A stretch of DNA of 64,000 nucleotides, taken from the NCBI RefSeq assembly GCF_050920415.1, contig NZ_CP169309.1, one strand, 5' to 3'. A program made the translations under genes and the position numbers. Positions 8,231 to 42,416 of the stretch are shown in pieces (the first letter of the stretch is position 1; each line of letters begins with the position of its first letter). Under the pieces are notes generated by a model. That model did no database searches. It was given only the letters and a program-made list of their open reading frames with translations, and was not told the DNA's origin. The stretch is from Escherichia coli (lineage in GTDB: Bacteria > Pseudomonadota > Gammaproteobacteria > Enterobacterales > Enterobacteriaceae).

Positions 8231-8449
8231 TTAACGTTCAATAATTTGCGAAACATCATCACGGTTAATTTGCATCGCGTTACCTTGCTGATCGTGATAA
8301 CTCACCAGCCCGGTATCATCATCAATTTCAGGTTTTCCATCGGTCAAAATCATACGGCCATCTTTGGTCGCCATGACGTAATCACTGGAACACCCGGAAA
8401 CAGCAAACGCCAGTCCGACTGCAGAAATTATTACTGCCCATTTTTTCAT
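8231..8449 (-). CDS. ygdR: Small lipoprotein (DUF903 family)
   Basis: 72 aa; signal peptide with lipobox AVSGC; paralogous to the ORF at 42189. Confidence 0.85.
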
Positions 8450-8586
8450 CCGGTTATCCTCATTTGGCCCACCTATGATAATAGTCTTTTTATAAACCGA
8501 CGTTATATATCTTGAAAGCAGGAAAATCTTAAACTGTGAGGGTAACAGGAGTGAGTACGCTCTCCTGCAGGAGAGCGTACGGAGTA

Positions 8587-9300
8587 TCAGAGCGGATTCT
8601 TTTTGTTGCGAATCAGGTTGAGGCTTTCAACCGCAATAGAGAAGAACATCGCGAAGTAGATGTAACCTTTCGGTACGTGGATGTCGAAACTTTCCAGAAT
8701 CAGGGTAAAGCCCACCAGAATCAGGAAAGAGAGCGCCAGCATTTTTACCGAAGGATGGCGTTCGACAAAATCACCAATCGAGCGCGCGGCAAACATCATC
8801 ACGCCTACGGCAATCACCACGGCTGCCATCATAATAAACAGGTGATCTGACAGACCCACAGCGGTAATCACCGAGTCGAGGCTGAAGATAATATCCAGCA
8901 GCATAATCTGCACGATAGCGCCGAGGAATGATGAAACGCGTGTTTTCAGCCCTTCTTCTTCACCTTCGATGGATTCGTGGATTTCCTTGCTGGCTTTCCA
9001 GATAAGGAACAGACCTCCCAGCAGCAGAATCAAATCACGGGCGGAAATTTCCTGACTGAATATTGTAAAAAGTGGATTCGTCAGGCGCGTTACCCAGGCT
9101 ATTGACGCCAGCAGCGCCAGACGCATAACCATGGCTCCCGCCAACCCCAGACGGCGCGCATGTGCACGTTGTGCCGTGGGGAGCTTTGCCACCACCAGAG
9201 AAAGGAAAATAATATTGTCGATCCCAAGAACGATCTCCAGCAGCGTCAGCGTACCGAGCGCAAGCCAGGCGTTAGGATCGGTTATCCATGCAAATAACAT
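8587..9300 (-). CDS. ygdQ: TerC-family inner membrane protein
   Basis: 237 aa polytopic membrane ORF; recognised as YgdQ. Confidence 0.85.
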
Positions 9301-9368
9301 CTAAAAAGCCCTGCCAAAAAAATGAAGCGGTAATTATATGCCCGGAAAGCGGCAGGTCAAAGCGATGG

Positions 9369-10058
9369 CTACTGGATCAGAAAATGACGGGCCAGTAGCG
9401 CACTGGTGAAATTCTTCTTCAAATAAAAGCCACGCGGCAGCGTCAGAATCCGTTCGCCCCGGGCACCAATGGCTTCGGTAAGCGCTTTCGCATTCGCTGC
9501 TTTCGGGCGTATCTGTAAATACTCCCCGTGACGAGCGGTGATCCGCTCAACCTGACCGAGAACAATCATATCCATTAATTCTTCCCAGTCTTCGCGCAGT
9601 TGCCGGTCTTCCTCTTCATTCGGGCTCCATAGCAATGGTGATCCTACGCGACGCTGCGCCAGCGGGATGCTGCGCTCGCCTTCAACCGGTATCCACAGCA
9701 CGCGTTTGAGCTTGTGGCGCACGTGGCTGGTTTCCCAGGTCACCCCGCTATTACCCGTTAACGGGGCAACACAAACGAATGTTGTTTCCAGCGGACGACC
9801 AAGACTATCCACAGGGATAGTTTTAAGTTCCACGCCCAGAGCAGCAAAATCTTGCTCAGGTTTACTCCCTGCGCTGGCACCTAGCCAGATCTCCAGTAAC
9901 ACGCCAATCCAGCCCTTATCGCGTTTTAAATTCTCCGGCGTCACCAGCCCAGCAAGTGCCGCCAGTTCTCCCAATGTATAACCAGAAAGTTGTTGTGCTT
10001 GCGCTAACAATTGTTCTTCAGTTTCGGGAGGAGAGAGCAGTGGGCGAGGTTGGGACAT
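9369..10058 (-). CDS. mutH: Methyl-directed mismatch repair endonuclease MutH
   Basis: 229 aa; recognised as MutH. Confidence 0.95.
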
Positions 10059-10246
10059 GTCATGATACCTTGGTTAAAAAACAAACAGCACTTCTGTGCC
10101 GAATATTCGCAGTGTAACTTTTTCCACATGCGTTGTTCAATTCTCTGATTTATATTGCTTTTTAGGTGTCGGATAATCCAGTTGCGCAACACTGCAACGG
10201 GTTTTCCAAATCTGGTCACTGAAAATAAACAGGATCTTACACCATG

Positions 10247-10600
10247 TTATCCACAGAAAGCTGGGATAACTGTGAAAAACCTCCACTACTGTTTCCATTT
10301 ACAGCCTTGACGTGCGACGAAACTCCAGTTTTTAGTGGTTCAGTGCTTAACTTAGTGGCACATTCTGTGGATAAATACGGCGTTGGTTGATCTTTCGCCA
10401 ACCTGTAAATGAGAGGTGTGACCTGGGTCACGAATTACTCCTTTTTATTACTTAAATTACATGTAATGCATTGACTAATAATGATTATTTTAAAATGTCG
10501 ATATCAGGCTTATTCAGAATGCTCCGGGTTTTCCCGTAGTAATTCCGTAGTTCTTCACAACTCTATCCACAGAAAAGGTGAATAAAAACGGCTATCCACC
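10247..10600. promoter_or_regulatory. DnaA-box cluster in the mutH-rppH intergenic region (DARS2-like)
   Basis: Perfect TTATCCACA at 10247-10255, its reverse complement TGTGGATAA at 10366-10374, and near-consensus CTATCCACA at 10563-10571 and CTATCCACC at 10592-10600, in a 685 bp non-coding gap; I recall DARS2 at this locus. Confidence 0.6.
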
Positions 10601-10742
10601 CCTTCCTCTGTTTATAACTCTGCACATAACTGTGAGTTATTCAATTGTTATTAGTGTGTAATGCCCTGCAGAGAGTGGTTTACCGTCTTCATGGAGTATG
10701 AAACAATCATTCGTATATAAAGCTTTATTTTGAGGTAGTCCG

Positions 10743-11273
10743 GTGATTGATGACGATGGCTACCGCCCAAACGTAGGTATCGTGATTTGTAATCGCCAGG
10801 GGCAGGTAATGTGGGCCCGGCGATTTGGTCAGCACTCCTGGCAATTTCCGCAAGGCGGAATCAACCCCGGAGAATCCGCAGAGCAGGCGATGTACCGTGA
10901 ATTGTTTGAAGAAGTAGGATTAAGCCGCAAAGACGTTCGAATCCTTGCTTCAACGCGTAACTGGTTGCGCTACAAATTACCGAAACGTTTGGTGCGTTGG
11001 GACACGAAGCCGGTTTGTATCGGCCAAAAACAAAAATGGTTTCTCTTGCAGCTGGTGAGCGGCGATGCAGAAATCAATATGCAAACCAGCAGTACACCAG
11101 AGTTTGATGGCTGGAGATGGGTAAGTTACTGGTATCCGGTCAGACAGGTGGTGTCATTTAAACGTGATGTCTACCGTAGGGTAATGAAAGAGTTCGCGAG
11201 TGTTGTGATGGCGCTGCAGGATAATACGCCAAAACCACAAAACGCATCTGCTTATCGACGTAAAAGAGGTTAA
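10743..11273 (+). CDS. rppH: RNA pyrophosphohydrolase (Nudix)
   Basis: 176 aa with Nudix box ([22 protein letters not shown]); recognised as RppH/NudH. Confidence 0.95.
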
Positions 11274-11285
11274 GTCACGCCAATT

Positions 11286-13532
11286 ATGCTCACTCGCCTG
11301 CGCGAAATAGTCGAAAAGGTAGCCAGCGCACCACGCCTGAATGAGGCGTTAAATATTCTGGTTACCGACATCTGTCTTGCGATGGATACCGAGGTCTGTT
11401 CGGTCTACCTGGCCGATCATGACCGACGTTGTTACTACCTGATGGCGACCCGGGGGCTGAAAAAACCACGTGGTCGCACTGTAACGCTTGCGTTTGATGA
11501 AGGGATCGTCGGCCTGGTTGGCAGGCTGGCGGAACCGATAAACCTTGCAGATGCGCAAAAGCACCCCAGCTTCAAATACATCCCCTCCGTAAAAGAAGAA
11601 CGTTTCCGCGCGTTTTTAGGCGTACCAATTATTCAACGTCGCCAGTTGCTTGGTGTACTGGTGGTACAGCAACGAGAGTTGCGCCAGTATGACGAAAGTG
11701 AAGAATCCTTCCTGGTGACGCTTGCCACCCAGATGGCAGCGATTCTTTCTCAGTCGCAGTTGACTGCCTTGTTTGGGCAATATCGCCAGACGCGAATCCG
11801 TGCATTACCGGCAGCGCCCGGTGTAGCAATTGCCGAAGGCTGGCAGGATGCCACGTTACCTTTAATGGAACAGGTGTATCAGGCATCAACGCTGGATCCG
11901 GCTCTGGAACGCGAACGACTGACCGGGGCGCTGGAAGAAGCGGCAAACGAGTTTCGCCGCTACAGCAAACGCTTTGCCGCCGGTGCACAAAAAGAAACGG
12001 CGGCTATTTTCGATCTTTACTCGCACCTGCTTTCGGACACCCGGCTGCGTCGCGAATTGTTTGCCGAGGTTGATAAAGGCTCGGTGGCAGAGTGGGCGGT
12101 AAAAACGGTCATTGAAAAATTTGCCGAACAGTTTGCCGCGCTAAGCGATAACTATCTCAAAGAGCGGGCTGGCGATTTACGTGCGCTGGGTCAGCGATTG
12201 CTGTTTCATCTTGATGACGCTAATCAAGGGCCGAACGCCTGGCCGGAACGTTTCATTCTGGTGGCAGATGAACTGTCAGCGACAACGCTTGCTGAGCTGC
12301 CCCAGGATCGCTTAGTCGGTGTTGTCGTGCGAGATGGCGCAGCCAACTCCCATGCTGCGATCATGGTACGTGCGCTGGGGATCCCTACCGTAATGGGCGC
12401 GGATATTCAGCCTTCGGTGCTGCATCGTCGGACGTTGATCGTCGATGGTTATCGCGGTGAATTGCTGGTCGATCCGGAGCCGGTACTGCTGCAAGAATAT
12501 CAGCGGCTAATTAGTGAAGAGATTGAGCTTAGCCGTCTGGCGGAAGATGACGTCAATTTACCCGCCCAGTTAAAAAGCGGCGAGCGCATTAAAGTCATGC
12601 TCAATGCCGGTTTAAGCCCGGAACATGAACAAAAACTGGGCAGCCGTATTGATGGCATAGGACTTTATCGCACTGAAATCCCATTCATGCTGCAAAGTGG
12701 TTTTCCGTCGGAAGAAGAACAGGTGGCGCAGTATCAGGGGATGCTGCAAATGTTCAATGATAAACCCGTCACCTTGCGTACGCTGGATGTCGGAGCAGAT
12801 AAGCAGCTGCCTTACATGCCGATCAGCGAAGAGAATCCATGCCTGGGTTGGCGTGGGATTCGCATTACGCTCGATCAGCCGGAGATCTTCTTGATTCAGG
12901 TGCGGGCGATGCTGCGTGCTAATGCCGCTACGGGCAACCTGAATATTCTGTTGCCGATGGTCACCAGCCTCGATGAAGTTGACGAAGCACGCCGCCTGAT
13001 TGAACGTGCCGGACGTGAAGTCGAGGAGATGATCGGTTACGAAATTCCCAAACCACGTATCGGCATCATGCTTGAAGTGCCGTCAATGGTATTTATGCTG
13101 CCGCATCTGGCAAAGCGGGTCGATTTTATCTCTGTTGGCACCAACGATCTGACTCAATACATCCTGGCCGTTGATCGCAACAATACCCGGGTGGCGAACA
13201 TTTATGACAGTCTTCATCCTGCAATGTTACGAGCTCTGGCGATGATCGCTCGGGAAGCGGAAATACATGGTATCGATCTCCGTTTGTGCGGTGAAATGGC
13301 GGGCGATCCCATGTGCGTGGCAATCCTCATTGGGCTTGGGTATCGCCATCTGTCTATGAACGGACGTTCTGTAGCGCGCGTAAAATACCTGCTGCGGCGC
13401 ATTGATTATGCCGAAGCAGAAAACCTTGCGCAGCGTAGTCTGGAAGCGCAACTGGCGACCGAAGTTCGCCATCAGGTTGCAGCCTTTATGGAGCGTCGCG
13501 GCATGGGCGGGTTGATTCGCGGAGGGTTATAG
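11286..13532 (+). CDS. ptsP: PTS-Ntr enzyme I (GAF domain plus EI)
   Basis: 748 aa; recognised as PtsP; immediately downstream of rppH. Confidence 0.95.
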   Translation: MLTRLREIVEKVASAPRLNEALNILVTDICLAMDTEVCSVYLADHDRRCYYLMATRGLKKPRGRTVTLAFDEGIVGLVGRLAEPINLADAQKHPSFKYIPSVKEERFRAFLGVPIIQRRQLLGVLVVQQRELRQYDESEESFLVTLATQMAAILSQSQLTALFGQYRQTRIRALPAAPGVAIAEGWQDATLPLMEQVYQASTLDPALERERLTGALEEAANEFRRYSKRFAAGAQKETAAIFDLYSHLLSDTRLRRELFAEVDKGSVAEWAVKTVIEKFAEQFAALSDNYLKERAGDLRALGQRLLFHLDDANQGPNAWPERFILVADELSATTLAELPQDRLVGVVVRDGAANSHAAIMVRALGIPTVMGADIQPSVLHRRTLIVDGYRGELLVDPEPVLLQEYQRLISEEIELSRLAEDDVNLPAQLKSGERIKVMLNAGLSPEHEQKLGSRIDGIGLYRTEIPFMLQSGFPSEEEQVAQYQGMLQMFNDKPVTLRTLDVGADKQLPYMPISEENPCLGWRGIRITLDQPEIFLIQVRAMLRANAATGNLNILLPMVTSLDEVDEARRLIERAGREVEEMIGYEIPKPRIGIMLEVPSMVFMLPHLAKRVDFISVGTNDLTQYILAVDRNNTRVANIYDSLHPAMLRALAMIAREAEIHGIDLRLCGEMAGDPMCVAILIGLGYRHLSMNGRSVARVKYLLRRIDYAEAENLAQRSLEAQLATEVRHQVAAFMERRGMGGLIRGGL

Positions 13533-13682
13533 CGCGGATCATATACATATCTTTTAACGGTATCCGGCAACCAGCCAGGTCCCCTTGTGCTATTATTCGC
13601 ACCTTTGGAGCGCCTGAAACCTGCGGCGCGCATTTCAATCGCTGTTCTCTTTCAGCGAAATAACAAGAACTTGTGGTGACAG

Positions 13683-14558
13683 ATGACCAGTAGCTATCTG
13701 CATTTTCCGGAGTTTGATCCGGTCATTTTCTCAATAGGACCCGTAGCGCTTCACTGGTACGGCCTGATGTATCTGGTGGGTTTCATTTTTGCAATGTGGC
13801 TGGCAACACGTCGGGCGAATCGTCCGGGCAGCGGCTGGACCAAAAATGAAGTTGAAAACTTACTCTATGCGGGCTTCCTCGGCGTCTTCCTCGGTGGACG
13901 TATTGGTTATGTTCTGTTCTACAACTTCCCGCAGTTTATGGCCGATCCGCTGTATCTTTTCCGTGTCTGGGACGGCGGCATGTCCTTCCACGGCGGCCTG
14001 ATTGGCGTTATCGTGGTGATGATTATCTTCGCCCGCCGTACTAAACGTTCCTTCTTCCAGGTTTCTGATTTTATCGCACCACTCATTCCGTTTGGTCTTG
14101 GTGCCGGGCGTCTGGGCAACTTTATTAACGGTGAATTGTGGGGCCGCGTTGACCCGAACTTCCCGTTTGCCATGCTGTTCCCCGGCTCCCGTACAGAAGA
14201 TATTTTGCTGCTGCAAACCAACCCGCAGTGGCAATCCATTTTCGACACTTACGGTGTGCTGCCGCGCCACCCATCACAGCTTTACGAGCTGCTGCTGGAA
14301 GGTGTGGTGCTGTTTATTATCCTCAACCTGTATATTCGTAAACCGCGCCCAATGGGAGCTGTCTCAGGTTTGTTCCTGATTGGCTACGGCGCGTTTCGCA
14401 TCATTGTTGAGTTTTTCCGCCAGCCCGACGCGCAGTTTACCGGTGCCTGGGTGCAGTACATCAGCATGGGGCAAATTCTTTCCATCCCGATGATTGTCGC
14501 GGGTGTGATCATGATGGTCTGGGCATATCGTCGCAGCCCACAGCAACACGTTTCCTGA
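13683..14558 (+). CDS. lgt: Prolipoprotein diacylglyceryl transferase
   Basis: 291 aa membrane protein; recognised as Lgt. Confidence 0.95.
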
Positions 14559-14564
14559 GGAACC

Positions 14565-15359
14565 ATGAAACAGTATTTAGAACTGATGCAAAAAGTGCTC
14601 GACGAAGGCACACAGAAAAACGACCGTACCGGAACCGGAACGCTTTCCATTTTTGGTCATCAGATGCGTTTTAACCTGCAGGATGGATTCCCGCTGGTGA
14701 CAACCAAACGTTGCCACCTGCGTTCCATCATCCACGAACTGCTGTGGTTCTTGCAGGGCGACACTAACATTGCTTATCTACACGAAAACAATGTCACCAT
14801 CTGGGACGAATGGGCCGATGAAAATGGCGACCTCGGTCCGGTGTATGGTAAACAGTGGCGTGCCTGGCCAACGCCAGATGGTCGTCATATTGACCAGATC
14901 ACTACGGTACTGAACCAGCTGAAAAACGACCCGGATTCCCGCCGCATTATTGTTTCAGCGTGGAACGTTGGTGAACTGGATAAAATGGCGCTGGCACCGT
15001 GCCATGCATTCTTCCAGTTCTATGTGGCAGACGGCAAACTCTCTTGCCAGCTTTATCAGCGCTCCTGTGACGTCTTCCTCGGCCTGCCATTTAACATTGC
15101 CAGCTATGCGTTACTGGTACATATGATGGCGCAGCAGTGCGATCTGGAAGTGGGTGATTTTGTCTGGACCGGTGGCGACACGCACCTGTACAGCAATCAT
15201 ATGGATCAAACCCATTTGCAATTAAGCCGTGAACCGCGCCCGCTGCCGAAGCTGATTATCAAACGTAAACCTGAATCCATCTTCGACTACCGTTTCGAAG
15301 ACTTTGAGATTGAAGGCTACGATCCGCATCCGGGCATTAAAGCGCCGGTGGCTATCTAA
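14565..15359 (+). CDS. thyA: Thymidylate synthase
   Basis: 264 aa starting [26 protein letters not shown]; recognised as ThyA. Confidence 0.97.
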
Positions 15360-15380
15360 TTACGAAACATCCTGCCAGAG

Positions 15381-15408
15381 CCGACGCCAGTGTGCGTCGG
15401 TTTTTTTT
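15381..15408 (+). terminator. Rho-independent terminator after thyA
   Basis: Hairpin CCGACGC cagtgt GCGTCGG followed by T8. Confidence 0.8.
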
Positions 15409-15543
15409 ACCCTCCGTTAAATTCTTCGCGACGCCTTCCCGAAATTTTGCAACCTCCTGCAACGGCGTAAATAGTCCGGAAGATGCGCCGAAGAAATAGA
15501 AACTGGCCCTCGTCTTTTTTTCTCCTCGCTCCATACTGCCGGC

Positions 15544-16014
15544 ATGAAAACACAACGTGGTTATACGCTGATTGAAACGCTGGTCGCGATGCTGATTCTG
15601 GTCATGCTAAGCGCAAGTGGACTCTATGGCTGGCAATACTGGCAGCAGTCGCAACGGCTATGGCAAACCGCCAGCCAGGCGCGGGACTATTTGCTCTATT
15701 TACGTGAAGATGCCAACTGGCATAACCGCGACCACAGTATCAGCGTTATCAGGGAGGGGGCGTTATGGTGCCTTGTGAGTTCCGCGGCTGGGGCCAATAC
15801 CTGTCATGGCAGTTCACCATTGGTCTTTGTGCCTCGCTGGCCCGAAGTCGAAATGAGCGACCTGACACCTTCGCTCACTTTCTTTGGCCTGCGCAATACC
15901 GCTTGGGCCGGACATATTCGCTTCAAAAACTCAACGGGAGAGTGGTGGCTGGTGGTTTCGCCGTGGGGAAGACTCCGGCTTTGTCAGCAAGGAGAAACAG
16001 AAGGATGCCTGTAA
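15544..16014 (+). CDS. ppdA: Prepilin-type (type IV pilin-like) protein
   Basis: 156 aa; N-terminal [11 protein letters not shown] prepilin motif. Confidence 0.88.
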
Positions 16015-16568
16015 AAGAGCAAGGTTTTTCTTTGCTGGAAGTGTTGATTGCTATGGCGATCAGTAGCGTATTGTTGCTGGGGGCAGCACGCTTTCTGCCT
16101 GCGTTACAGCGTGAAAGTTTAACGAGCACCCGTAAGCTGGCGCTGGAAGATGAAATCTGGCTGCGGGTATTTACCGTCGCGAAGCATCTCCAGAGGGCGG
16201 GTTATTGTCATGGCAGCTGTACCGGCGAAGGGCTGGAAATTGTCGGACAGGGGGACTGTATCATTGTGCAGTGGGATGCGAACAGTAACGGTATCTGGGA
16301 TCGCGAACCGGTAAAAGAGTCCGACCAAATTGGATTTCGTGTGAAGGAGCATGTGCTGGAAACGCTACGCGGTGCGACATCCTGTGAAGGTAAGGGCTGG
16401 GATAAAGTCACTAATCCGGATGCCATCATTATCGACACTTTTCAGGTTACCCGACAGGATGTCAGCGGTTTCTCGCCGGTGTTGACGGTTAATATGCATG
16501 CTGCCAGCAAGGCTGATCCACAAACTGTGGTGGATGCCAGCTATAGCGTGACAGGATTCAACCTGTGA
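16005..16568 (+). CDS. ppdB: Prepilin-type protein
   Basis: Start chosen at ATG 16005 ([25 protein letters not shown]); the 15765 track ORF is an in-frame upstream extension. Confidence 0.85.
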
Positions 16569-16972
16569 ACCGCGAAAAGGGTGTTTCGTCACTGGCTCTG
16601 GTCCTTATGCTGCTGGTTTTGGGTAGCTTGCTATTGCAAGGAATGAGTCAGCAGGATCGCAGTTTTGCCTCTCGCGTGAGCATGGAAAGTCAGTCATTGC
16701 GCCGCCAGGCCATCGTTCAGTCGACGCTGGAGTGGGGAAAAATGCACGCCTGGCAGACGCAGCCCGCAGTTCAGTGCTTACTGTACGCTGCCACCGGTGC
16801 CCGGGTTTGTCTGCGTTTATTGGCAGATAATGAAGCCTTATTGATTGCCGGTTATGAAGGCGTTTCGTTGTGGCGAACAGGCGAAGTCATCGATGGAAAC
16901 ATTGTTTTTTCGCCACGCGGCTGGAGCGATTTTTGTCCGCTGAAAGAGAGGGCGTTATGTCAGCTTCCCTGA
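16565..16972 (+). CDS. ygdB: Uncharacterised protein in ppd cluster
   Basis: 135 aa; overlaps ppdB stop; conserved position. Confidence 0.8.
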
Positions 16973-17280: not shown

Positions 17281-17292
17281 TCAGGAGCCGCT

Positions 17293-29290: not shown

Positions 29291-29323
29291 ATTGCGCATG
29301 TCGCATCTGGCGATTTCCACCAC

Positions 29324-30655: not shown

Positions 30656-30670
30656 GGCACACCTCTTTGC

Positions 30671-32340: not shown

Positions 32341-32385
32341 TGTTTGAAGTAATTATTACTTCTGACGTGCCTTGCCTTTTTTTTT
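32329..32385 (+). terminator. Leader terminator partnered with the RAT
   Basis: 10 bp stem AGGCAAGGCA / TGCCTTGCCT with ~28 nt loop, followed by T9 (32377-32385), directly upstream of the antiterminator RBS GGAG. Confidence 0.7.
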
Positions 32386-32396
32386 GGAGCTATGGA

Positions 32397-33220
32397 ATGA
32401 TCATCGAAAAAGTCATGAACAATAATTGTGTACAGGCATCGATGAATGGACAGGAGGTTATCATTTCTGGGCCTGGCGTCGGTTACAAAAAAAATATGGA
32501 ATGTCGGTCCCTGAGCATCCGGCTAACCGGATTTTTTATGTCAGAAATGAACAAAAAAATAAACTCTACAAATTGATTGAGCATGTGGATATTGAGTATA
32601 TTTTTGTTGCCGAATAAATAGTGCAATATGCGGAGAACAATCTCGAAAAAAATCTCAATCCATCGCTACTATTGATTCTTGCTGATCATATTTCGAATGC
32701 AATATCCCGAGTCGCTTCAGGCATACAAATTAATAATGTTTTCCTTGATGAAATCAAAGCGTTGTACAAAGCAGAGTATGCGATAAGTCGCGATGCATTA
32801 ACTATCATTAATGAGCAATTCAGCGTTCAACTTCCTGATGATGAGATTGGTTTTATAGCATTGCATATTTTAAATAATTATGAGAATTCAGTTGATTATG
32901 AATCAGTACGGATTATTGAGTTGTCGCAAATAATCACGGGGCTTATTGAAGTTGTTTATAACAGAAAGGTGGACAGAAGTTCATTTAATTATTCCAGGTT
33001 CATGATACACCTTAAATATTTTTCAAGTCGCGTATTATGCAATGAAAAAATAAAACAGAAAGATATTGGTGATCTCTATGAACAGTTTCTTGAGAAAGAC
33101 ATTCTGTTACAGCGCGCAATTCATGAAATTGAAAGGTATTTGTACGCCACTTTTAAATATGAATTGATTTTGGAAGAAAAACTATATCTCTCTATTCGCA
33201 CCAAAGTATTAATGGACTGA
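32397..33220 (+). pseudogene. BglG/LicT-family transcription antiterminator (CAT-PRD1-PRD2), disrupted
   Basis: CAT domain MIIEKVMNNNCVQASMNGQEVIISGPGVGYKK in one frame; continuation ...RIFYVRNEQKNKLYKLIEHVDIEYIFVAE in the -1 frame after an A8 run (32486-32493); in-frame TAA at 32615-32617; PRD region continues to 33220 (FIALHIL, FMIHLKYF conserved His). Confidence 0.8.
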
Positions 33221-33251
33221 TTATATATAACATTTATATGAGATAACCCGC

Positions 33252-34832
33252 ATGAAACAAAAGAAAGCCTGGAGTTTTTTTCAGAGCCTGGGAAAGGCAT
33301 TTATGTATCCCATCGCTCTGCTAAGTGTATGTGGCATGATGTTAGGGCTAGGAAGTGGTTTAGCCAGCGATGATATGGCAAAATTAATTCCACTACTGGC
33401 TATTCCCGTAATTAAAACCATTCTTGATTTTATTGTTAGCCTTGGTTTGTTTGCCTTTGTCAATTTACCTGTATTGTTTGCGATAGCTATACCTCTGGGG
33501 TTATTAAAAGAGAAAGAGGATAAAGCCTATGGCGCTTTTTCTGGCTTAATTGGTTTCATGGCGATGCATCTGGGAACGAACTTTTATCTTAAACAACATG
33601 ACTTATTGGTCGCTGCTGATCAAATGTCGACACATGGGCAAACCATTATTCTGGGAATCCAGTCCTACAATACCAGTGTGTTGGGTGGGATTATAGCAGG
33701 ATTATTAGTCGCCAGTATGTATAAAAAGATCGTTAACTTACGTATTCCTGAATCATTAGGATTTTATAGTGGCCCACGCCTGGTGCCTATTATTACACTG
33801 ATTGTGATGAGTGGATTTGGTCTGATCATCCCTTTTATCTGGCCGCCATTTTTCAATCTTTTCATGCTCATTGGCCACTGGATTTCAACTTCCGGTCCTG
33901 TTGGCTATTTTTTCTATGCAGTCGCCGAACGCGTGACGATACCTTTTGGTTTAAATCACCTGGTGACGTCAGTTTTCCGCTTTACCCCCATCGGCGGATC
34001 GGCAGTGATCGGCGGAGAAGAGTATTATGGCACCCTGAACATGTTTATGGCGTACGTCAAAGAGAATGCGGTCATTCCGCTGGAGTTGGCGGGGAAAATG
34101 GAACAGGGCAAACTGATGATTCAGTATGGTCTGGCTGGTGCCGCGCTGGCGATGTATCGCACTGCTCATGCTCAAAACAGAAAAGCTATCAAAGCATTGC
34201 TTATTTCCGGGGTGCTTACAGTCATTATTGGCGGCGTCAGCGAACCGATTGAGTTTCTGTTCTTATTTGTCAGTCCACTGCTATTTGTCTTCCATGCTTT
34301 TATGAATGGATTCGCCAACATGGTCTTGCCATATATGGGCGTGAAGATGGGATTTACTGGCGATCTGATTCAATTTATTAGCTTTGGCGTATTGCGTGGC
34401 ACAAGAACAGGTTGGCCAATAGCGGTGTGTGTCGAAGTGGCCTATTTCTTTATTTATTACTTTGTGTTCCGTTGGACTATTCTCAAATTTAACCTGATGA
34501 CGGTAGGCCGTGAAGAGTCCAGTCCTGTCACGCTGAACGCTCATGAGGATACGGCTATAGCGGATATCCCAACGCTTGATAAATCAGAGCTGCAAGCAGC
34601 GGAGCAGATGGTTAAGGCACTTGGTGGTAAAGAGAATATTAAATCCCTGGATAATTGCGTAACTCGTTTACGTTTAACAATCGCAGATATGGGATTGATT
34701 GACGAGGCAGCAATAAAAAGAGCTGGCGGAATTGCGGTTGTTAAACTTGATCAAAATACCCTACAAGTCATTATCGGTACTAAAGTCATCGCCTTGCGTC
34801 GGGATATGGATAACTACATGGGGATATGCTGA
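33252..34832 (+). CDS. PTS sugar transporter EIICB, glucose/maltose family, no EIIA domain
   Basis: 526 aa; polytopic EIIC with SEPIEF motif; C-terminal EIIB with phospho-Cys motif NCVTRLR. Confidence 0.9.
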   Translation: MKQKKAWSFFQSLGKAFMYPIALLSVCGMMLGLGSGLASDDMAKLIPLLAIPVIKTILDFIVSLGLFAFVNLPVLFAIAIPLGLLKEKEDKAYGAFSGLIGFMAMHLGTNFYLKQHDLLVAADQMSTHGQTIILGIQSYNTSVLGGIIAGLLVASMYKKIVNLRIPESLGFYSGPRLVPIITLIVMSGFGLIIPFIWPPFFNLFMLIGHWISTSGPVGYFFYAVAERVTIPFGLNHLVTSVFRFTPIGGSAVIGGEEYYGTLNMFMAYVKENAVIPLELAGKMEQGKLMIQYGLAGAALAMYRTAHAQNRKAIKALLISGVLTVIIGGVSEPIEFLFLFVSPLLFVFHAFMNGFANMVLPYMGVKMGFTGDLIQFISFGVLRGTRTGWPIAVCVEVAYFFIYYFVFRWTILKFNLMTVGREESSPVTLNAHEDTAIADIPTLDKSELQAAEQMVKALGGKENIKSLDNCVTRLRLTIADMGLIDEAAIKRAGGIAVVKLDQNTLQVIIGTKVIALRRDMDNYMGIC

Positions 34833-36007
34833 TGGATGTTTTTAATACTCCTATTTCCCGCAAAGGAACATATTGTACCCAATGGGACTTTTGCGAGGAC
34901 AGATTTGGTGTAAAAGATGTATTACCATTCTCTATTTCAGATATGGATCTTCCGATACCGGAAGCTATCATCAGGGCATTAAGAAAACGTCTGGAACACC
35001 CGATTTTAGGGTACAGCCGTTGGCAGCATGATGACTATCTGAATGCGATAGTCAATTGGTATCATCAACAATATAAAACTGAAATCAAACCAGAATGGAT
35101 CACCTATAGCCCAAGCGTGATGTACTCCATTGCTAAAGCAATAGAGTTATTGACATCGCATGGTGATAATATTCTCGTTTTTACACCTGTCTATAATGCA
35201 TTTTTTGATATAATTAAACATAGCGAGAGAAATATTCTGACAGCCTCTTTGATTATAAAAAATGAGGGGGGCTACGCTATCAATTGGCAAGATTTTGATC
35301 TTAAGATTCAAAGCGCAAAGATGGTGTTATTATGTAATCCTCATAACCCGACAGGAACCGTCTGGTCGGAAGAAGAGCTGCATAAAATCGCTGCAAGCTG
35401 TGCAAGACATAATGTCTGGTTATGTTCAGATGAAATTCACAGTGATTTTGTTTTTAATCGTAGCTTTACATCTGCGCTTAAAATAAAAAAAGAAAAAGTA
35501 GTGGTGTTTAATTCGATATCGAAGACATTTAATGTTCCTGCGCTAACAGGATCGTATATGATTTCAACTGACGATAATTTTAATCATAAGTTCAGGACGA
35601 TATCAAGATATCGCGATTTTGTAAACTCCCCATCCGTACTGAATATAATTGCAACTATTATTGCCTATAACGAATGTGAGGGATGGTTAAAGTCATTAAA
35701 GGCACATATTGCCTCTAACATTCAATTCACCCAGCAGTATCTGAACGAAAATACTCCAGAATTGATTGTAAGGCCTGCTGATGGTTGCTATTTTTCGTGG
35801 ATAGATTGCTCTGCTATTGGTTATCCCTTTGATGAATTCTACAGTCGATTAATTCATGAAGGCAAAGTGGGCATTATGGCGGGGAATGTCTATGGAACGG
35901 AGGGGGAGGGCTACCTTCGTCTGAACCTGGCCTGCGGTCGAGAAAAATTATATATGGGGCTTACGCGTCTTGCGAGTGTAATTAAAAATATTAATCAAGG
36001 AAAATAA
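34832..36007 (+). CDS. MalY/PatB-like PLP-dependent C-S lyase (aminotransferase class I/II fold)
   Basis: N-terminus MDVFNTPISRKGTYCTQWD aligns with E. coli MalY MFDFSKVVDRHGTWCTQWD; SxSKTFN PLP-lysine region; alternative ATG at 34826 overlaps the PTS stop. Confidence 0.88.
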   Translation: MDVFNTPISRKGTYCTQWDFCEDRFGVKDVLPFSISDMDLPIPEAIIRALRKRLEHPILGYSRWQHDDYLNAIVNWYHQQYKTEIKPEWITYSPSVMYSIAKAIELLTSHGDNILVFTPVYNAFFDIIKHSERNILTASLIIKNEGGYAINWQDFDLKIQSAKMVLLCNPHNPTGTVWSEEELHKIAASCARHNVWLCSDEIHSDFVFNRSFTSALKIKKEKVVVFNSISKTFNVPALTGSYMISTDDNFNHKFRTISRYRDFVNSPSVLNIIATIIAYNECEGWLKSLKAHIASNIQFTQQYLNENTPELIVRPADGCYFSWIDCSAIGYPFDEFYSRLIHEGKVGIMAGNVYGTEGEGYLRLNLACGREKLYMGLTRLASVIKNINQGK

Positions 36008-36009
36008 AA

Positions 36010-36606
36010 ATGAACAGCACGGATCTTATCCATCTCATTAAACATTTTATGCGTAACGAACATAAAGCAGTTGAAGAAGTTATTGATTCCCCCCTTTCGG
36101 AGGTCGCAAATTTAATTAAAGTATTACAGTCTTGTCAGGGGAAAGTTGTTTTTATTGGTGTCGGTAAGTCCGGTATTATTGCCCGAAAACTCGCCGCAAC
36201 ATTTGCCAGCACTGGAACTCCCTCGTTTTTTGTTCACGGTACTGAAGCCGTACACGGCGATCTTGGGATGGTGGCGAAAGATGATGTTGTTATTCTTATT
36301 TCAAACAGTGGTGAGACGACAGAAATCCTGGCAACACTACCTAGTCTGAAAAAAATGGGTAATTATTTGATCTCCTTTACCCGCAGTCATCGCTCATCGC
36401 TTGCGATAAGTTGTGATTTATCCGTTGAAATTCCCGTAAAAAGTGAGGCGGATAATTTAGGTTTAGCGCCGTCATGCTCATCAACAGTCGTTCTGGTTGT
36501 TGGTGATGCGGTGGCGCTTGCGCTCTCCGAATTGAAAAAGTTTACTTGTGCTGATTTCGGCTTATATCATCCAGGAGGTGCGCTCGGTATTAAAGCAAAC
36601 TCATAA
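36010..36606 (+). CDS. SIS-domain-only sugar-phosphate isomerase, KdsD/GutQ-like without CBS domains
   Basis: 198 aa; GVGKSGIIARKLAATFASTGTPSFFVHGTEAVHGDLGMV and SNSGET closely resemble the KdsD SIS domain; ORF ends where CBS domains would begin. Confidence 0.88.
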   Translation: MNSTDLIHLIKHFMRNEHKAVEEVIDSPLSEVANLIKVLQSCQGKVVFIGVGKSGIIARKLAATFASTGTPSFFVHGTEAVHGDLGMVAKDDVVILISNSGETTEILATLPSLKKMGNYLISFTRSHRSSLAISCDLSVEIPVKSEADNLGLAPSCSSTVVLVVGDAVALALSELKKFTCADFGLYHPGGALGIKANS

Positions 36607-36676
36607 TTTTAGAATATAAAACAGTAACCGGTCACGCCATCTTTTGGGGTGGCGTTCATTGATGTGAGTGTCAGCT

Positions 36677-37624
36677 ATGAAAAACGTTCTGGTCACCGTT
36701 CCCAGCTTTTCAGCGCGTTGTGTTTCTGCCAGCAAGCTGCTAAGAGAAAATCATTTTAACCTTATTATCAAGAATAATGTGGAGCATCTGGTTAAATCAG
36801 AATCCACAGTATTACGAGAATCTATTTGCGCAGTCATTGCCGGAAAAGATTGTTATCAAGCGGATACGTTATCGCGACTACCAGGAGTGAAAATAATATC
36901 GAGATTCGGGACAGGGATTGATAATATTGATCTTCATACGGCTCGACAATCAGGTATTGTGGTCAATAATGCTGTTGGGATTAATTCAAATGCAGTCGCG
37001 GAATTTATCATTGGTCTTATTTTTGCGAGCATGAGAAATATCCCCGGTAGCTATCATGCGATGCAAAATGGTTATTGGGGCGAGTCGCATGGCTGCGAGT
37101 TACAAGGTAAACGTATTGGCCTGCTTGGCTACGGCAATATTGGCAAAACACTGGCGAAAAGGTTATCTGGTTTTGATGTTGAGCTTTTAGCTTTTGACAA
37201 ACAACCCGATTTCCAGGCCGCAGGCAAAGATGGAGTTCAGTTCGTATCAATTGAAGATATCTTTATGCAGTCTCATGTCATCATCGTTCTTTTGCCATTT
37301 TCTCCGGAGCTGGAGAACTTCATTAGTCATAAATATTTGTCGATGATGCGCAATGGTGCTCTTATCATCAACGCCGCAAGGGGAAAGTTGCTGGATGAGA
37401 GTGCTTTACTTCAGGTAATTGAAGAACGAAATGTTTTTGCAGCACTGGATGTGTTTAGCTCTGAACCGCTAGCGCAATTTAGCCCATTGCTACATGCCAG
37501 GAATATCATTACAACGCCGCATATTGCGGCCGCCACCGTTGAGTCATACCAGCAAACCGGGATATACGTTGCCAGGTCGATAATAGATTTCTTTGCAGGA
37601 AGGGAGATAAAAAACGTGCTGTGA
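36677..37624 (+). CDS. NAD-dependent D-isomer-specific 2-hydroxyacid dehydrogenase
   Basis: About 315 aa; NAD-binding GLLGYGNIGKT and catalytic-region TPHIAAAT; start could alternatively be GTG at 36668. Confidence 0.85.
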   Translation: MKNVLVTVPSFSARCVSASKLLRENHFNLIIKNNVEHLVKSESTVLRESICAVIAGKDCYQADTLSRLPGVKIISRFGTGIDNIDLHTARQSGIVVNNAVGINSNAVAEFIIGLIFASMRNIPGSYHAMQNGYWGESHGCELQGKRIGLLGYGNIGKTLAKRLSGFDVELLAFDKQPDFQAAGKDGVQFVSIEDIFMQSHVIIVLLPFSPELENFISHKYLSMMRNGALIINAARGKLLDESALLQVIEERNVFAALDVFSSEPLAQFSPLLHARNIITTPHIAAATVESYQQTGIYVARSIIDFFAGREIKNVL

Positions 37625-37650
37625 GTTCAGCTAAGGAAGATTTCAGGTAC

Positions 37651-37683
37651 AAAAAAACCGCAATCTGTGAAACATATTGCGGT
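37651..37683 (-). terminator. Rho-independent terminator of the tRNA-fMet operon
   Basis: On the minus strand, stem ACCGCAAT / ATTGCGGT followed by T7, immediately 3' of the last tRNA copy. Confidence 0.75.
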
Positions 37684-37702
37684 TTATCAGCATCATAAGT
37701 GT

Positions 37703-37779
<77 letters not shown>

Positions 37780-37812
37780 TCACCGTACTGCTTTACTTCA
37801 TCAAATTTTGAT

Positions 37813-37889
<77 letters not shown>

Positions 37890-37922
37890 TCACCGTACTG
37901 CTTTACTTCATCAAATTTTAAT

Positions 37923-37999
<77 letters not shown>

Positions 38000-38032
38000 T
38001 CACCGTACTGCTTTACTTCATCAAATTTTAAT

Positions 38033-38109
<77 letters not shown>

Positions 38110-38317
38110 TCCGTGGATGCGCACTATACTCCGCTCGCGTTTTCATGCAACCTTTTTTTTACCCAGATCACGGATTTGGTATGATTTTGAGCAAAAACAA
38201 ATCACTAAAGCCTGTTTTTTGTGCAAAATTTGCGTCAGGGAGAGGCTGCTCATTTCATTAAACGCGGCGGTTTGTTATCTTCATTGCGCCTTATTTTTTA
38301 AACTGAAGAAGAGAACA

Positions 38318-39415
38318 ATGAAAGGACGTTGGGTAAAGTACCTTCTTATGGGCACGGTTGTGGCAATGCTTGCCGCCTGCTCTTCCAAACCAACCGATCG
38401 CGGACAGCAATATAAAGACGGGAAATTTACCCAGCCTTTCTCTCTGGTAAACCAGCCAGATGCCGTTGGCGCGCCAATTAACGCCGGTGATTTTGCCGAG
38501 CAAATTAACCATATCCGTACTTCGTCACCGCGTCTGTATGGCAACCAGAGTAATGTTTATAATGCGGTGCAGGAGTGGCTACGCGCAGGCGGTGATACCC
38601 GCAATATGCGTCAGTTCGGCATTGACGCCTGGCAGATGGAAGGTGCCGACAACTATGGCAACGTGCAGTTTACGGGCTATTACACGCCTGTCATTCAGGC
38701 GCGCCATACCCGTCAGGGCGAGTTCCAGTATCCTATTTACCGTATGCCGCCAAAACGTGGTCGTCTGCCGTCTCGTGCTGAGATCTACGCGGGAGCATTG
38801 AGCGATAAATACATCCTCGCTTACAGCAACTCTCTGATGGATAACTTCATTATGGATGTGCAGGGTAGCGGGTATATCGATTTTGGTGATGGCAGTCCGC
38901 TTAACTTCTTCAGCTATGCCGGAAAGAATGGTCATGCCTATCGCAGTATTGGTAAGGTGCTGATTGACCGTGGCGAAGTGAAAAAAGAAGATATGTCGAT
39001 GCAGGCGATTCGTCACTGGGGTGAAACACACAGTGAAGCCGAGGTTCGCGAGCTGCTGGAACAGAACCCGTCTTTCGTCTTCTTTAAACCGCAATCTTTT
39101 GCTCCGGTGAAAGGGGCAAGTGCGGTGCCGCTGGTTGGTCGCGCTTCAGTTGCGTCCGATCGTTCCATTATCCCGCCTGGTACAACTTTACTGGCAGAAG
39201 TGCCGCTGCTGGATAATAACGGCAAATTTAACGGTCAGTACGAACTGCGGCTGATGGTGGCGCTGGATGTCGGTGGTGCAATCAAAGGCCAACACTTCGA
39301 TATTTATCAAGGTATCGGGCCGGAAGCCGGACACCGCGCAGGTTGGTACAACCACTATGGACGTGTTTGGGTGCTGAAAACCGCCCCGGGCGCAGGTAAC
39401 GTCTTTAGCGGCTGA
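38318..39415 (+). CDS. mltA: Membrane-bound lytic murein transglycosylase A (lipoprotein)
   Basis: Start at ATG 38318 (MKGRWVKYLLMGTVVAMLAACSS lipobox); the 38036 track ORF is an extension through the tRNA genes. Confidence 0.93.
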   Translation: MKGRWVKYLLMGTVVAMLAACSSKPTDRGQQYKDGKFTQPFSLVNQPDAVGAPINAGDFAEQINHIRTSSPRLYGNQSNVYNAVQEWLRAGGDTRNMRQFGIDAWQMEGADNYGNVQFTGYYTPVIQARHTRQGEFQYPIYRMPPKRGRLPSRAEIYAGALSDKYILAYSNSLMDNFIMDVQGSGYIDFGDGSPLNFFSYAGKNGHAYRSIGKVLIDRGEVKKEDMSMQAIRHWGETHSEAEVRELLEQNPSFVFFKPQSFAPVKGASAVPLVGRASVASDRSIIPPGTTLLAEVPLLDNNGKFNGQYELRLMVALDVGGAIKGQHFDIYQGIGPEAGHRAGWYNHYGRVWVLKTAPGAGNVFSG

Positions 39416-39491
39416 TGTGTTATTCTGTATACCGTTTTGACGGATACGACAGGGTGAGGGATAACCTCGCCCTTTTTAATTCTGAGGTGCT

Positions 39492-40298
39492 ATGTCTGTG
39501 GTAATTAGTGATGCATGGCGTCAGCGTTTTGGTGGCACTGCGCGTCTGTATGGTGAAAAAGCGTTGCAACTGTTTGCTGATGCGCATATTTGTGTGGTCG
39601 GTATCGGTGGCGTCGGTTCCTGGGCGGCGGAAGCGCTGGCGCGTACGGGGATTGGCGCAATCACACTTATCGATATGGATGATGTGTGCGTCACTAATAC
39701 CAATCGGCAAATTCACGCGCTGCGAGATAACGTCGGGCTGGCCAAAGCGGAAGTAATGGCGGAGCGTATTCGCCAGATTAACCCGGAGTGCCGTGTAACG
39801 GTGGTAGATGACTTCGTGACGCCGGATAACGTAGCGCAATATATGAGTGCCGGTTATTCGTACGTGATTGATGCCATTGATAGTGTGCGACCCAAAGCGG
39901 CGCTGATTGCTTATTGTCGGCGCAATAAAATCCCTCTGGTCACGACTGGTGGTGCTGGTGGGCAGATTGATCCGACGCAGATTCAGGTTACCGATCTGGC
40001 GAAAACGATTCAGGACCCTCTGGCGGCGAAGTTGCGCGAGCGCCTGAAAAGCGATTTTGGCGTAGTGAAAAACAGCAAAGGTAAGCTCGGCGTGGATTGC
40101 GTGTTCTCTACCGAAGCGCTGGTGTACCCGCAGTCAGACGGTACGGTGTGCGCGATGAAAGCCACGGCAGAAGGGCCGAAGCGGATGGATTGTGCATCTG
40201 GATTTGGCGCGGCGACGATGGTGACCGCCACCTTTGGTTTTGTTGCGGTTTCTCATGCGTTGAGGAAGATGATGGTGAAAGCGGCGCGTCAGGGGTAA
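39492..40298 (+). CDS. tcdA: tRNA threonylcarbamoyladenosine dehydratase (ThiF/MoeB-like E1)
   Basis: 268 aa; Rossmann motif VVGIGGVGSWAAEALARTG. Confidence 0.9.
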   Translation: MSVVISDAWRQRFGGTARLYGEKALQLFADAHICVVGIGGVGSWAAEALARTGIGAITLIDMDDVCVTNTNRQIHALRDNVGLAKAEVMAERIRQINPECRVTVVDDFVTPDNVAQYMSAGYSYVIDAIDSVRPKAALIAYCRRNKIPLVTTGGAGGQIDPTQIQVTDLAKTIQDPLAAKLRERLKSDFGVVKNSKGKLGVDCVFSTEALVYPQSDGTVCAMKATAEGPKRMDCASGFGAATMVTATFGFVAVSHALRKMMVKAARQG

Positions 40299-40348
40299 AC
40301 AATCAGGTCGGATGCGACGTGAACGTCTTATCCGACCTGGTTTTGCGC

Positions 40349-40792
40349 TTAACCCTGCTTCGCCGCCGCGATAATCGCCTCGCTTAACGCATTCAACCCC
40401 TGACTGCGAGAGGCGCTAAGTTGCCCACGCAATCCCAGCTCATCAAACAATGCCAGCGGCGACTGTGCCTGCAATTCGGCGGCGGTTTTCCCCTCAACGG
40501 CAGTCAACAACACCGCCAGCAGGCCGCGCACAATGCGTCCTTCGCTGTCGCCAAAGAAATGCATCGTGCCGTTTTCAGCCACGGTATATCCCAGCCAGAC
40601 GCGGTTTTCGCATCCGGCGATCTCTTTAGCCTGCGCTTTTAACTCGTCTGGCAAAGCTGGAAGCTGTTTCCCCAACATAATTAGCTGACGATATTTGTCT
40701 TCCCATTGAGTCAACGGCGCGAAAGTTTCGTGTAACGTCTTTACGGTAACGGTTGTGCCGAACGGATGTCCGGCGAATTGCGGGTTCGTCAT
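40349..40792 (-). CDS. csdE: Sulfur acceptor protein (SufE-like)
   Basis: 147 aa; recognised as CsdE; adjacent to csdA. Confidence 0.9.
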
Positions 40793-41997
40793 TAATCCAC
40801 CAATAATTCCAGCGCACGGTCAACGGCATTCACCAGCGCATCCACATCACTCTTTGTATTATATGGCGCAAAAGAGGCGCGCAGTGTGCCGGTTACGCCT
40901 AATTCTGCCAGTAGCGGCTGAGCGCAATGCTGCCCGGCCCGCAGGGCAATGCCGTACTCCGCCAGCAGCGTCACCATATCGCTGTGATGAACGCCAGCAA
41001 AATCAAAGGCTAGCAGGCTGGAATCCTGGCTGCGGAATGAACGAAAGCCTGGACGTTTTGCCAGCGCCTCTTCTGCAATCGTCGCCAGGCTGCGACTCCA
41101 GCTTTCTGCCTGGTTGATATCGTAATCTGCCAGCCATTCCAGCGCCGCGCTTAACCCAATTACGCCAGCGACATTTGGCGTTCCTGCTTCCAGTTTCCAC
41201 GGCGCAGATTGAGTGATGAAGCCGTCAAAACTCACTTCGTGAACCATTTTGCCGCCGCCCAGCCAGGGCGACATTGCTTCCAGCAGTTCTGGTTTGCCGT
41301 AAAGTACGCCTATCCCTGTCGGGCCATACAGTTTGTGACCAGAGAAAGCGTAAAAATCAATATCCAGTTGCTGAACATCCGCGGGGAAATGCACCGCCCC
41401 CTGAGCACCATCAACCATCACCACCATCCCGGCTGAATGAGCAAAGGTAATCGCTCGTGCCAGATCCGGGCAACCGCCAGTGACGTTAGACATCTGGCCC
41501 AACGCCAGAATCCGACTATGGGGAGTAATCAGTTCAGGCAACAAATCGATATCTGGCAACCGCTGCGCATTAAGCGGCAATTTCACCACTTTGGCTCCGG
41601 TTTGTTGGGCGACCATCAGCCAGGGGACGAGGTTGGCGTGATGCTCTGCCACACTGACAATAATTTCATCGCCCGGTTGCAGACGCGGACGGGCATAGCA
41701 TTGCGCCACCATGTTGATGGATTCAGTGGTGCCACGCGTCCAGACGATAGTTTTGTCATCTGGTGCATTCAGTAATTGCGCCACTTTTTCCCGTGCAGCT
41801 TCGTAACGCGCGGTCAGGCGTTGGGCCTCGGCAAACTGACTACGATGGACGTTTCCGGCGCTCAGGCTGTAAAACTGTCGGGTTGCTTCAACCACGACTT
41901 CAGGTTTAAGCGCGGTCGCGGCACTGTCGAGATAGACGCCCGCATCCTGTAGCGCGGGAAACTGGGCGCGAAATTGCGCGGGATTAAAAACGTTCAT
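40792..41997 (-). CDS. csdA: Cysteine desulfurase / sulfinate desulfinase
   Basis: 401 aa from ATG at 41997 ([13 protein letters not shown]); PLP class V aminotransferase; track ORF has an upstream extension. Confidence 0.92.
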
Positions 41998-42188
41998 GGT
42001 ACTCCTCGGCTTGATGCACCGATCGTGACGCAAAATTCACTTTGATACAAGGAGAGTGCTAACCATCAGAATTATCTGGATATCCTGACGAAGCCGCGTA
42101 AGTAACATATGCTAAATAGTGTTAGGCGTTAATTTTAGCCTGTTAATCAATACTATTAAGATTTATTAATCGCTTTAAGGAGAAGATG

Positions 42189-42416
42189 ATGAAAAAGACT
42201 GCCGCAATTATTTCTGCCTGTATGCTGACTTTTGCCCTGAGCGCCTGTTCCGGTTCGAACTATGTGATGCACACCAATGACGGACGTACCATCGTCTCTG
42301 ACGGCAAACCACAGACTGATAACGATACCGGTATGATTTCGTATAAAGACGCTAATGGCAACAAACAGCAGATCAACCGTACCGACGTGAAAGAGATGGT
42401 CGAACTGGATCAGTAA
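42189..42416 (+). CDS. ygdI: Small lipoprotein (DUF903 family), paralog of YgdR
   Basis: 75 aa with lipobox LSAC; similar to the ORF at 8231-8449. Confidence 0.85.

Follow-up and report, generated by a model that had tools for sequence, protein, structure and literature searches.

The paralogous DUF903 lipoproteins YgdR and YgdI of Escherichia coli

Introduction

Escherichia coli carries two very small paralogous lipoproteins, YgdR and YgdI. Both genes lie within one stretch of 64,000 nucleotides of E. coli chromosome (contig NZ_CP169309.1, assembly GCF_050920415.1), referred to here as the window. The literature searched gives expression, localisation and screening data only and reports no biochemical function for either protein, in agreement with the initial annotation of this DNA, which had described their function as unknown.

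The two genes and their neighbours

The features used in the analysis are as follows.

8231..8449, minus strand: ygdR coding sequence, a 72 aa prolipoprotein, stop codon within the range (ORF call)
8390..8449, minus strand: ygdR signal peptide and lipobox, residues 1-20, with the Cys20 codon at 8390..8392 (read from the sequence by a PS51257-type rule)
8202..8226, minus strand: terminator-like hairpin 5 nt past the ygdR stop, a 10-pair stem then a T-rich tail (consensus scan, a pattern match only)
7083..8123, minus strand: tas, adjoining ygdR
42189..42416, plus strand: ygdI coding sequence, a 75 aa prolipoprotein, stop codon within the range (ORF call, RefSeq start)
42189..42248, plus strand: ygdI signal peptide and lipobox, residues 1-20, with the Cys20 codon at 42246..42248 (read by the same rule)
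40792..42033, minus strand: csdA, on one side of ygdI
42433..42638, minus strand: GcvB RNA, on the other side of ygdI (Rfam match, 199 bits)
42440..42461, no strand assigned: GC-rich hairpin in the intergenic gap where ygdI and gcvB converge, a terminator-like site on the minus strand (42461..42440)

The gene names first proposed match the RefSeq annotation, which places "lipoprotein YgdR" on identical DNA (a 701-base query, window positions 8000-8700). The two genes are on opposite strands with a separation of 33.7 kb, against the 34 kb originally given, and the neighbours (tas beside ygdR, csdA and GcvB flanking ygdI) had been correctly named. For ygdI there is an alternative in-frame ATG one codon upstream, at 42186, which would give a product of 76 aa (42186..42416, plus strand); RefSeq uses the second ATG (42189) rather than the first. 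The Shine-Dalgarno sequence AAGGAG precedes the first ATG by 3 nt and the second by 6 nt. The hairpin at 42440..42461 is the intrinsic terminator of gcvB on the minus strand. It is also the sole hairpin 3' of ygdI, and may have a role in ygdI termination as well.

Paralogy and family membership

YgdR and YgdI are identical at 43 of 72 positions (60%, E 1e-31 by BLASTP), or 58% for the mature proteins. This is well above background, and the conserved core motif proposed for the pair is an exact fit to the invariant columns of the alignment. As a tblastn query against the window, each protein recovers its paralog at E ~3e-26, while the next best match has an E of 0.5, and the similarity is therefore far beyond chance. 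Membership of DUF903 is equally clear, with scores well above both cut-offs. Pfam PF06004 (gathering cut-off 27 bits) matches YgdR with 85.9 bits and YgdI with 83.9 bits, covering positions 1-49 of the 49 in the profile; NCBIfam NF033216 (curated cut-off 42 bits) matches them with 105.9 and 113.2 bits, covering 1-71 of 71. That these are YgdR and YgdI, that they are true paralogs, and that they are lipoproteins of this family can be taken as virtually certain. The observation is correct, but it is an ordinary one that adds nothing new: several solved structures of the fold exist, and the paralogy is already known, being written into the curated name of NF033216, "YgdI/YgdR family lipoprotein".

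The DUF903 family comprises 262 clusters at 50% identity, and intact members are mostly about 70-80 aa in length. No domain fusions are found in intact members, the best 150 of the 262 cluster representatives all being single-domain. Longer DUF903 proteins were considered as fusions and rejected: they reflect gene calls that are read-through, frameshifted or chimeric. Similarly, six neighbourhoods of divergent members gave no conserved operon partner. Some of these repeat the E. coli synteny and the others have unrelated surroundings (fix-yaaU/kefFC, ruvA, yncE-like/AraC), the yncE-adjacent type being counted as a third subfamily beside the YgdI and YgdR types. With no constant partner across the six loci, assigning a function from gene neighbourhood was rejected.

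The most conserved positions of the family are G31, P40, G56, D43 and D53, which are Gly, Pro and Asp residues in β-turns, and their conservation looks like maintenance of the fold rather than a binding site. YgdR has a net charge of -6. However, net charge in the family ranges from -10 to +3 and is negative in 64% of members; given that charge is not conserved, an acidic decoy or cation binder was rejected as the family mechanism.

Age of the duplication

At third codon positions, ygdR and ygdI are just 35% identical. Judged from sequence, the duplication is old and the two orthologue lines are separate. In divergent genomes, each copy keeps its own neighbourhood: a YgdI-type protein, 70% identical, adjoins csdA-csdE-tcdA-mltA, and a YgdR-type protein, 65% identical, adjoins mutH and an aldo-keto reductase (csdA-csdE thus marking ygdI, and mutH/tas marking ygdR). 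The identities of these orthologues agree with their assignment by synteny. Both genes are core in E. coli, being present in 5424 and 5425 of 5426 genomes.

Export and placement in the envelope

A signal peptide with lipobox had been proposed for both proteins, and both indeed satisfy the PROSITE PS51257-type rule, with the lipobox VSGC in YgdR and LSAC in YgdI and the Cys at position 20 in each. All of 47 curated family members carry the lipidated Cys (47/47), and 45 of them satisfy the lipobox rule. A gene description given in PMC8767339 has the wording "DUF903 family verified lipoprotein", and a proteome of O157:H7 includes both YgdR and YgdI as lipoproteins (PMC3210124). The Sec-type signal peptide, ended by the lipobox, would direct export of each precursor; Cys20 would then be diacylglycerylated, the signal peptide cut off, and the new N-terminus acylated.

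The residue at +2 is S, A, G, T or R, and never D, among the 47 members, and it is Ser in both YgdR and YgdI. By the E. coli sorting rule, Ser rather than Asp at this position implies sorting to the outer membrane by the Lol pathway. The tether from the Cys to the start of the barrel is 3-4 residues in 45 of the 47 members, which implies that the barrel sits directly on the membrane surface, with peptidoglycan out of reach. On fractionation, tagged YgdI appeared both in the outer membrane and in vesicles (PMC8284480). On the basis of the +2 rule and this fractionation, there is good reason to regard both proteins as outer-membrane lipoproteins with a membrane-apposed barrel, which presumably faces the periplasm.

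The vesicle fraction also raises the idea that the proteins are surface-exposed, or mainly vesicle cargo, and act outside the cell, for example on molecules of a host or competitor. Vesicles formed after oxidative stress are enriched in YgdI (PMC8284480), titles of published work place family members in the vesicle proteomes of several species, and in Serratia a DUF903 cluster and one type VI secretion locus are correlated (PMC12165300). However, PMC8284480 regards YgdI as an untethered lipoprotein of a generic kind, with YfeY behaving alike, the literature searched gave no surface-exposure data, and ygdI and ygdR are core genes at housekeeping loci rather than island genes. A role outside the cell is thus improbable.

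Fold and oligomeric state

The mature part, of 52-55 residues, is a single six-stranded Sm-like small β-barrel of about 50 residues. Structures have been solved for YgdR (2JN0 and 3FIF, whose chains are identical to residues 21-72 of the protein analysed here), and for six relatives (5CAI, 2RA2, 2RD1, 3BDU, 2RB6 and 2K57). Beyond the family, the closest folds are those of Hfq and Lsm, at 6-20% identity.

Given that Hfq and Lsm form rings, DUF903 proteins might likewise assemble into six- to eight-membered Sm-like rings that lie flat against the outer membrane, as a stress-induced scaffold whose function resides in the ring and not in the monomer. The numbers of chains per crystal entry are compatible with this for 5cai (6), 2ra2 (6), 3bdu (7) and 3fif (probably 8, obtained by subtraction from entry and chain totals). 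However, other family crystals have 2 or 3 chains, and NMR gave single chains for YgdR (2jn0) and for a Pseudomonas-type relative (2k57). The DUF903 barrel also lacks the N-terminal helix of Sm and Hfq proteins and has an extra C-terminal strand, and no sequence relation to them is detectable, the proteins belonging neither to the LSM/Hfq Pfam families nor to the Sm1/Sm2 type. As a crude test, AlphaFold2 was run on six linked copies using a 10-sequence family alignment; it returned a pTM of 0.24 with lower per-domain confidence, and so does not support a confident Sm-like ring. Taken together, a functional ring appears very improbable.

Expression and regulation

The published transcriptomics indicate a regulatory split, with ygdI under RpoS and Cpx and ygdR under Rcs. 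ygdI is strongly RpoS-dependent and serves as an RpoS reporter (PMC6153362, PMC5437024, PMC13162491), and it is lowered in a C. rodentium cpxRA mutant. ygdR is listed as Rcs-induced on cell-wall damage (PMC5105897). A LolCDE inhibitor induces both genes, and the published fold inductions are 25-53x for ygdI and 8-12x for ygdR (PMC5105897); both are also up with a cathelicidin-derived peptide (PMC6737244).

These responses bear on whether the two genes are simply redundant duplicates, retained by chance or for their dosage and without any meaningful difference in role. The 60% identity, with every fold-defining residue common to both, would fit redundancy, as would the common responses to the LolCDE inhibitor, to acid and to the peptide. 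Against this, the magnitude of induction and the published regulator both differ, the two lines are each kept in their own neighbourhoods where orthologues are just 65-70% identical, and both genes are in essentially every E. coli genome. Plain redundancy is accordingly judged unlikely.

Conserved promoter elements were not seen upstream of either gene, the alignments with divergent orthologues being too diverged. An RcsB-box-like sequence, TAAGATTTTCCTGC, is found at 8518..8531 (minus strand) upstream of ygdR; it is a poor fit to the consensus, and no claim is made for it.

It is worth adding that the small RNA SroC originates from the gltIJKL transcript, and that an Rfam scan of the whole window gave neither SroC nor any other RNA family near ygdR. 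The statement that SroC derives from the ygdR 3' region (PMC12803456) is therefore taken as a slip.

Possible function

The most likely reading overall, and one that we consider reasonably probable, is that YgdR and YgdI are anciently duplicated, outer-membrane-anchored, non-enzymatic binding modules belonging to separate stress regulons. The barrel would be free of catalytic features and may act as a binding or adaptor module for some component of the envelope on the periplasmic side of the outer membrane. Both genes would have been retained because each answers to a stress circuit of its own, ygdI to RpoS general stress and Cpx and ygdR to Rcs envelope stress, so that a similar activity could be supplied under different conditions. 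This putative binding function with a regulatory division of labour is offered tentatively, at slightly less than an even chance; neither experiment nor computation in this analysis identified a ligand or partner.

A more specific version, in which the barrel is a stress-inducible adaptor that docks on an outer-membrane machine or lipid feature, or forms flat Sm-like rings, and stabilises the outer membrane, with YgdI acting via RpoS and YgdR via Rcs, is speculative and has a low probability. If it were true, an Sm-fold protein would serve a dedicated structural purpose in the envelope of Gram-negative bacteria.

The wider interest is that DUF903 proteins are conserved, abundant, stress-induced E. 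coli envelope lipoproteins whose molecular function is still to be assigned. Useful experiments are narrowed by several constraints, namely the short tether that keeps the barrel on the membrane surface, the lack of operon partners, and the existence of two anciently separated lineages in their own neighbourhoods, attributed by published data to different regulons.

Comparison with known systems

Within the YgdI/YgdR family itself (PF06004, NF033216), of which ygdI and ygdR are the founding members, the lipobox and the 50-residue Sm-like barrel are present as expected and there is no difference to report. With Hfq, Sm and Lsm proteins the resemblance is of fold only: these are cytoplasmic or nuclear with access to RNA, whereas YgdI and YgdR carry an export signal and lipobox, and being exported and lipid-anchored they would make no contact with cytoplasmic RNA.

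A different kind of likeness is seen with OsmB, OsmE, Slp, YbaY, MliC, RcsF and SlyB. Several of these have defined roles, such as inhibition of lysozyme by MliC and sensing of envelope damage by RcsF, but none is assigned to DUF903. They are likewise small, lipobox-bearing and Lol-sorted, and one published table (PMC5105897) shows them induced together with ygdI and ygdR through RpoS, Rcs or inhibition of Lol. Their folds and families are unrelated to DUF903, and the likeness is thus one of regulation and location only.

Paralogy and genomic context of YgdR and YgdI

YgdR and YgdI align by BLASTP with 43 identities in 72 positions (60%) and an E value of 1e-31, which bears out their proposed paralogy; the core motif described in the initial annotation corresponds to the invariant columns of this alignment. 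When tblastn was run against the 64-kb window, each protein recovered the other (E ~3e-26), with no further match better than E 0.5. Both N-termini pass the PROSITE PS51257-type lipoprotein rule, the lipobox cysteine being at residue 20 of the prolipoprotein (AVSGC in YgdR, LSAC in YgdI), and the lipobox noted initially is thus present in both. The window is Escherichia coli chromosome, and the relevant features are as follows.

8231..8449, minus strand: ygdR open reading frame, 72 aa
42186..42416, plus strand: ygdI open reading frame from the first ATG, 76 aa
42189, plus strand: RefSeq start of ygdI at the second ATG, 75 aa, the length first reported
42433..42638, minus strand: GcvB sRNA (Rfam match, 199 bits)

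A 701-base stretch around ygdR matches several complete genomes at 100% identity, with the annotation tas - ygdR - ygdQ; an 801-base stretch around ygdI carries the annotation ygdI - gcvA, and csdA lies on the opposite side. The neighbours had been named correctly: tas lies downstream of ygdR, and ygdI lies between csdA and the GcvB sRNA. The ribosome-binding site AAGGAG of ygdI precedes the first ATG by 3 nt and the second by 6 nt, a spacing that makes the annotated start at 42189 more plausible than 42186. Both are core genes, ygdR being present in 5424 and ygdI in 5425 of 5426 complete E. coli genomes.

Age and retention of the duplication

The DNA of the two genes is 59% identical overall and only 35% identical at third codon positions, indicating that the duplication is old and has seen no recent gene conversion. 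A YgdI-type protein (70% identity to YgdI, 50% to YgdR) still adjoins csdA-csdE-tcdA-mltA, and a YgdR-type protein (65% identity to YgdR, 44% to YgdI) still adjoins mutH and an aldo-keto reductase. It follows from these divergent orthologues that the lineages split before those organisms diverged, and that each locus position was kept. That both lineages have long been retained at fixed loci speaks against simple redundancy of ygdI and ygdR.

Published expression data concern both genes. ygdI belongs to the group of genes with the strongest RpoS dependence, and serves as an RpoS reporter (PMC6153362, PMC5437024, PMC13162491). With a LolCDE inhibitor the ygdI response was 25-53-fold and ygdR induction 8-12-fold, and ygdR is listed as Rcs-induced upon cell-wall damage (PMC5105897). 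ygdI is also lower in a cpxRA mutant of Citrobacter rodentium and responsive to ampicillin and acid, and ygdR goes up after an acid shift along with its neighbour tas. We infer that the duplicates persist mainly because, through them, different stress circuits each control a similar module; the upstream alignments are too diverged to show promoter conservation.

The neighbourhoods of further DUF903 members are unrelated (between an MFS transporter and kefF-kefC, and by ruvA), and there was no conserved operon partner in the neighbourhoods of the family members looked up. A third subfamily (the cluster representatives P0208, P0157 and P0179), with the consensus ...AGCTTNYVMTTK.GQTIVTQGKPQLDKETGMTSY..., shares only ~36% identity with YgdI and with YgdR, and is absent from the window. 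The P0208 gene (781..1002 of its locus, L013) adjoins a YncE-like beta-propeller and an AraC regulator.

Family anatomy and proposed mode of action

An exhaustive profile search gave only 262 clusters at 50% identity. Intact members are single-domain proteins, typically of ~70-80 aa, the longer representatives being read-through, frameshifted or chimeric gene calls. Among the representatives P0121-P0270 many are artefactual (frameshifted tails, chimeras, low-quality translations), with read-through into the gcvB region in, for example, P0129, P0136 and P0269, so that the number of clusters exaggerates the true diversity of the family.

Across 47 aligned intact members, the lipobox cysteine is invariant, and conservation is highest at turn residues: G31 (94%), P40 (98%), G56 (100%), K39 (83%), D43 (83%) and D53 (85%). 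The residue following the cysteine (+2) is S, A, G, T or R, and never Asp. As implied by sequence, the precursor would be exported by Sec, Cys20 lipid-modified and the signal peptide cleaved off, and, by the established +2 rule of E. coli lipoprotein sorting, the Lol system would carry the protein to the outer membrane. Fractionation has placed tagged YgdI in the outer membrane and in vesicles (PMC8284480), and YgdI and YgdR were both detected as lipoproteins in the O157:H7 proteome (PMC3210124). A literature search gave no direct support for an extracellular or vesicle role, and in the vesicle study YgdI figures as a generic, untethered lipoprotein (PMC8284480).

The tether from the cysteine to the first strand is very short (3-4 residues in 45 of the 47 members), which together with the structure model suggests that the barrel would be confined to the membrane surface, unable to span the periplasm to peptidoglycan. 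The Sm-like fold suggests that barrels could assemble into an Sm-like ring, as do certain family crystals with 6-8 chains; against a ring, the family NMR structures are single-chain, chain counts vary between structures, and an AlphaFold run on a linked hexamer, a crude test, gave a pTM of 0.24. An acidic decoy against cationic peptides is rejected at family level, net charge (from -10 to +3 in the 47 members) not being conserved. YgdI and YgdR have neither a catalytic signature nor a fused domain, and are read most economically as small adaptors or binding modules on the inner face of the outer membrane. The literature searched gave no molecular function for either protein, in agreement with the initial annotation.

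Other features of the window

32621..37624, plus strand: accessory block of five open reading frames, between amiC and the tRNA-Met array
37703..38109, minus strand: four tandem tRNA-Met(CAT) genes, 110-nt period
3334..3618, plus strand: OmrA and OmrB sRNAs (86-97 bits)
60819..61178, plus strand: CsrB (381 bits)

In the accessory block, the BglG/LicT-type antiterminator is truncated (199 aa, its match confined to profile positions 79-269) and the KpsF/GutQ-like SIS protein is half-length; the other products are a MalX-like PTS EIIBC, a PatB/MalY C-S lyase and a 2-hydroxyacid dehydrogenase. At least 80% of a 6-kb query spanning the block has a match in 1683 of 5426 complete E. coli genomes. Other strains compared have three or two tRNA-Met copies annotated at the site, so copy number there is variable. 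OmrA, OmrB, CsrB and GcvB make up four regulatory RNAs linked to Hfq or CsrA in these 64 kb, and are expected E. coli genes.

In the stretch 42416..42461, ygdI and gcvB converge, with ends only 17 nt apart, and the one hairpin downstream of ygdI is that of the gcvB terminator (42440..42461). In TraDIS, insertions in ygdI, as in hfq, were advantageous in trimethoprim and sulfamethoxazole (PMC8767339); the adjacent gcvB/gcvA folate-linked regulon, and not YgdI itself, could be what is affected. According to a passing remark in a 2026 paper, the 3' region of ygdR mRNA is the source of the SroC sRNA (PMC12803456). This looks erroneous, given that an Rfam scan of the whole window has neither SroC nor another RNA family near ygdR (3' region 8100..8230).

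Comparison with known families and structures

The assignment of both proteins to DUF903 holds: they match the whole Pfam PF06004 profile, scoring 84-86 bits (cut-off 27 bits). Both also match NCBIfam NF033216 at 106-113 bits (cut-off 42 bits), and as this is named 'YgdI/YgdR family lipoprotein', their paralogy is already in the curated family name. Residues 21-72 of YgdR from the window are identical to PDB 2JN0/3FIF, and there are structures of six more relatives (5CAI, 2RA2, 2RD1, 3BDU, 2RB6 and 2K57). The initial observation and its interpretation are correct and already known, these being annotated core genes of a curated family with solved structures.
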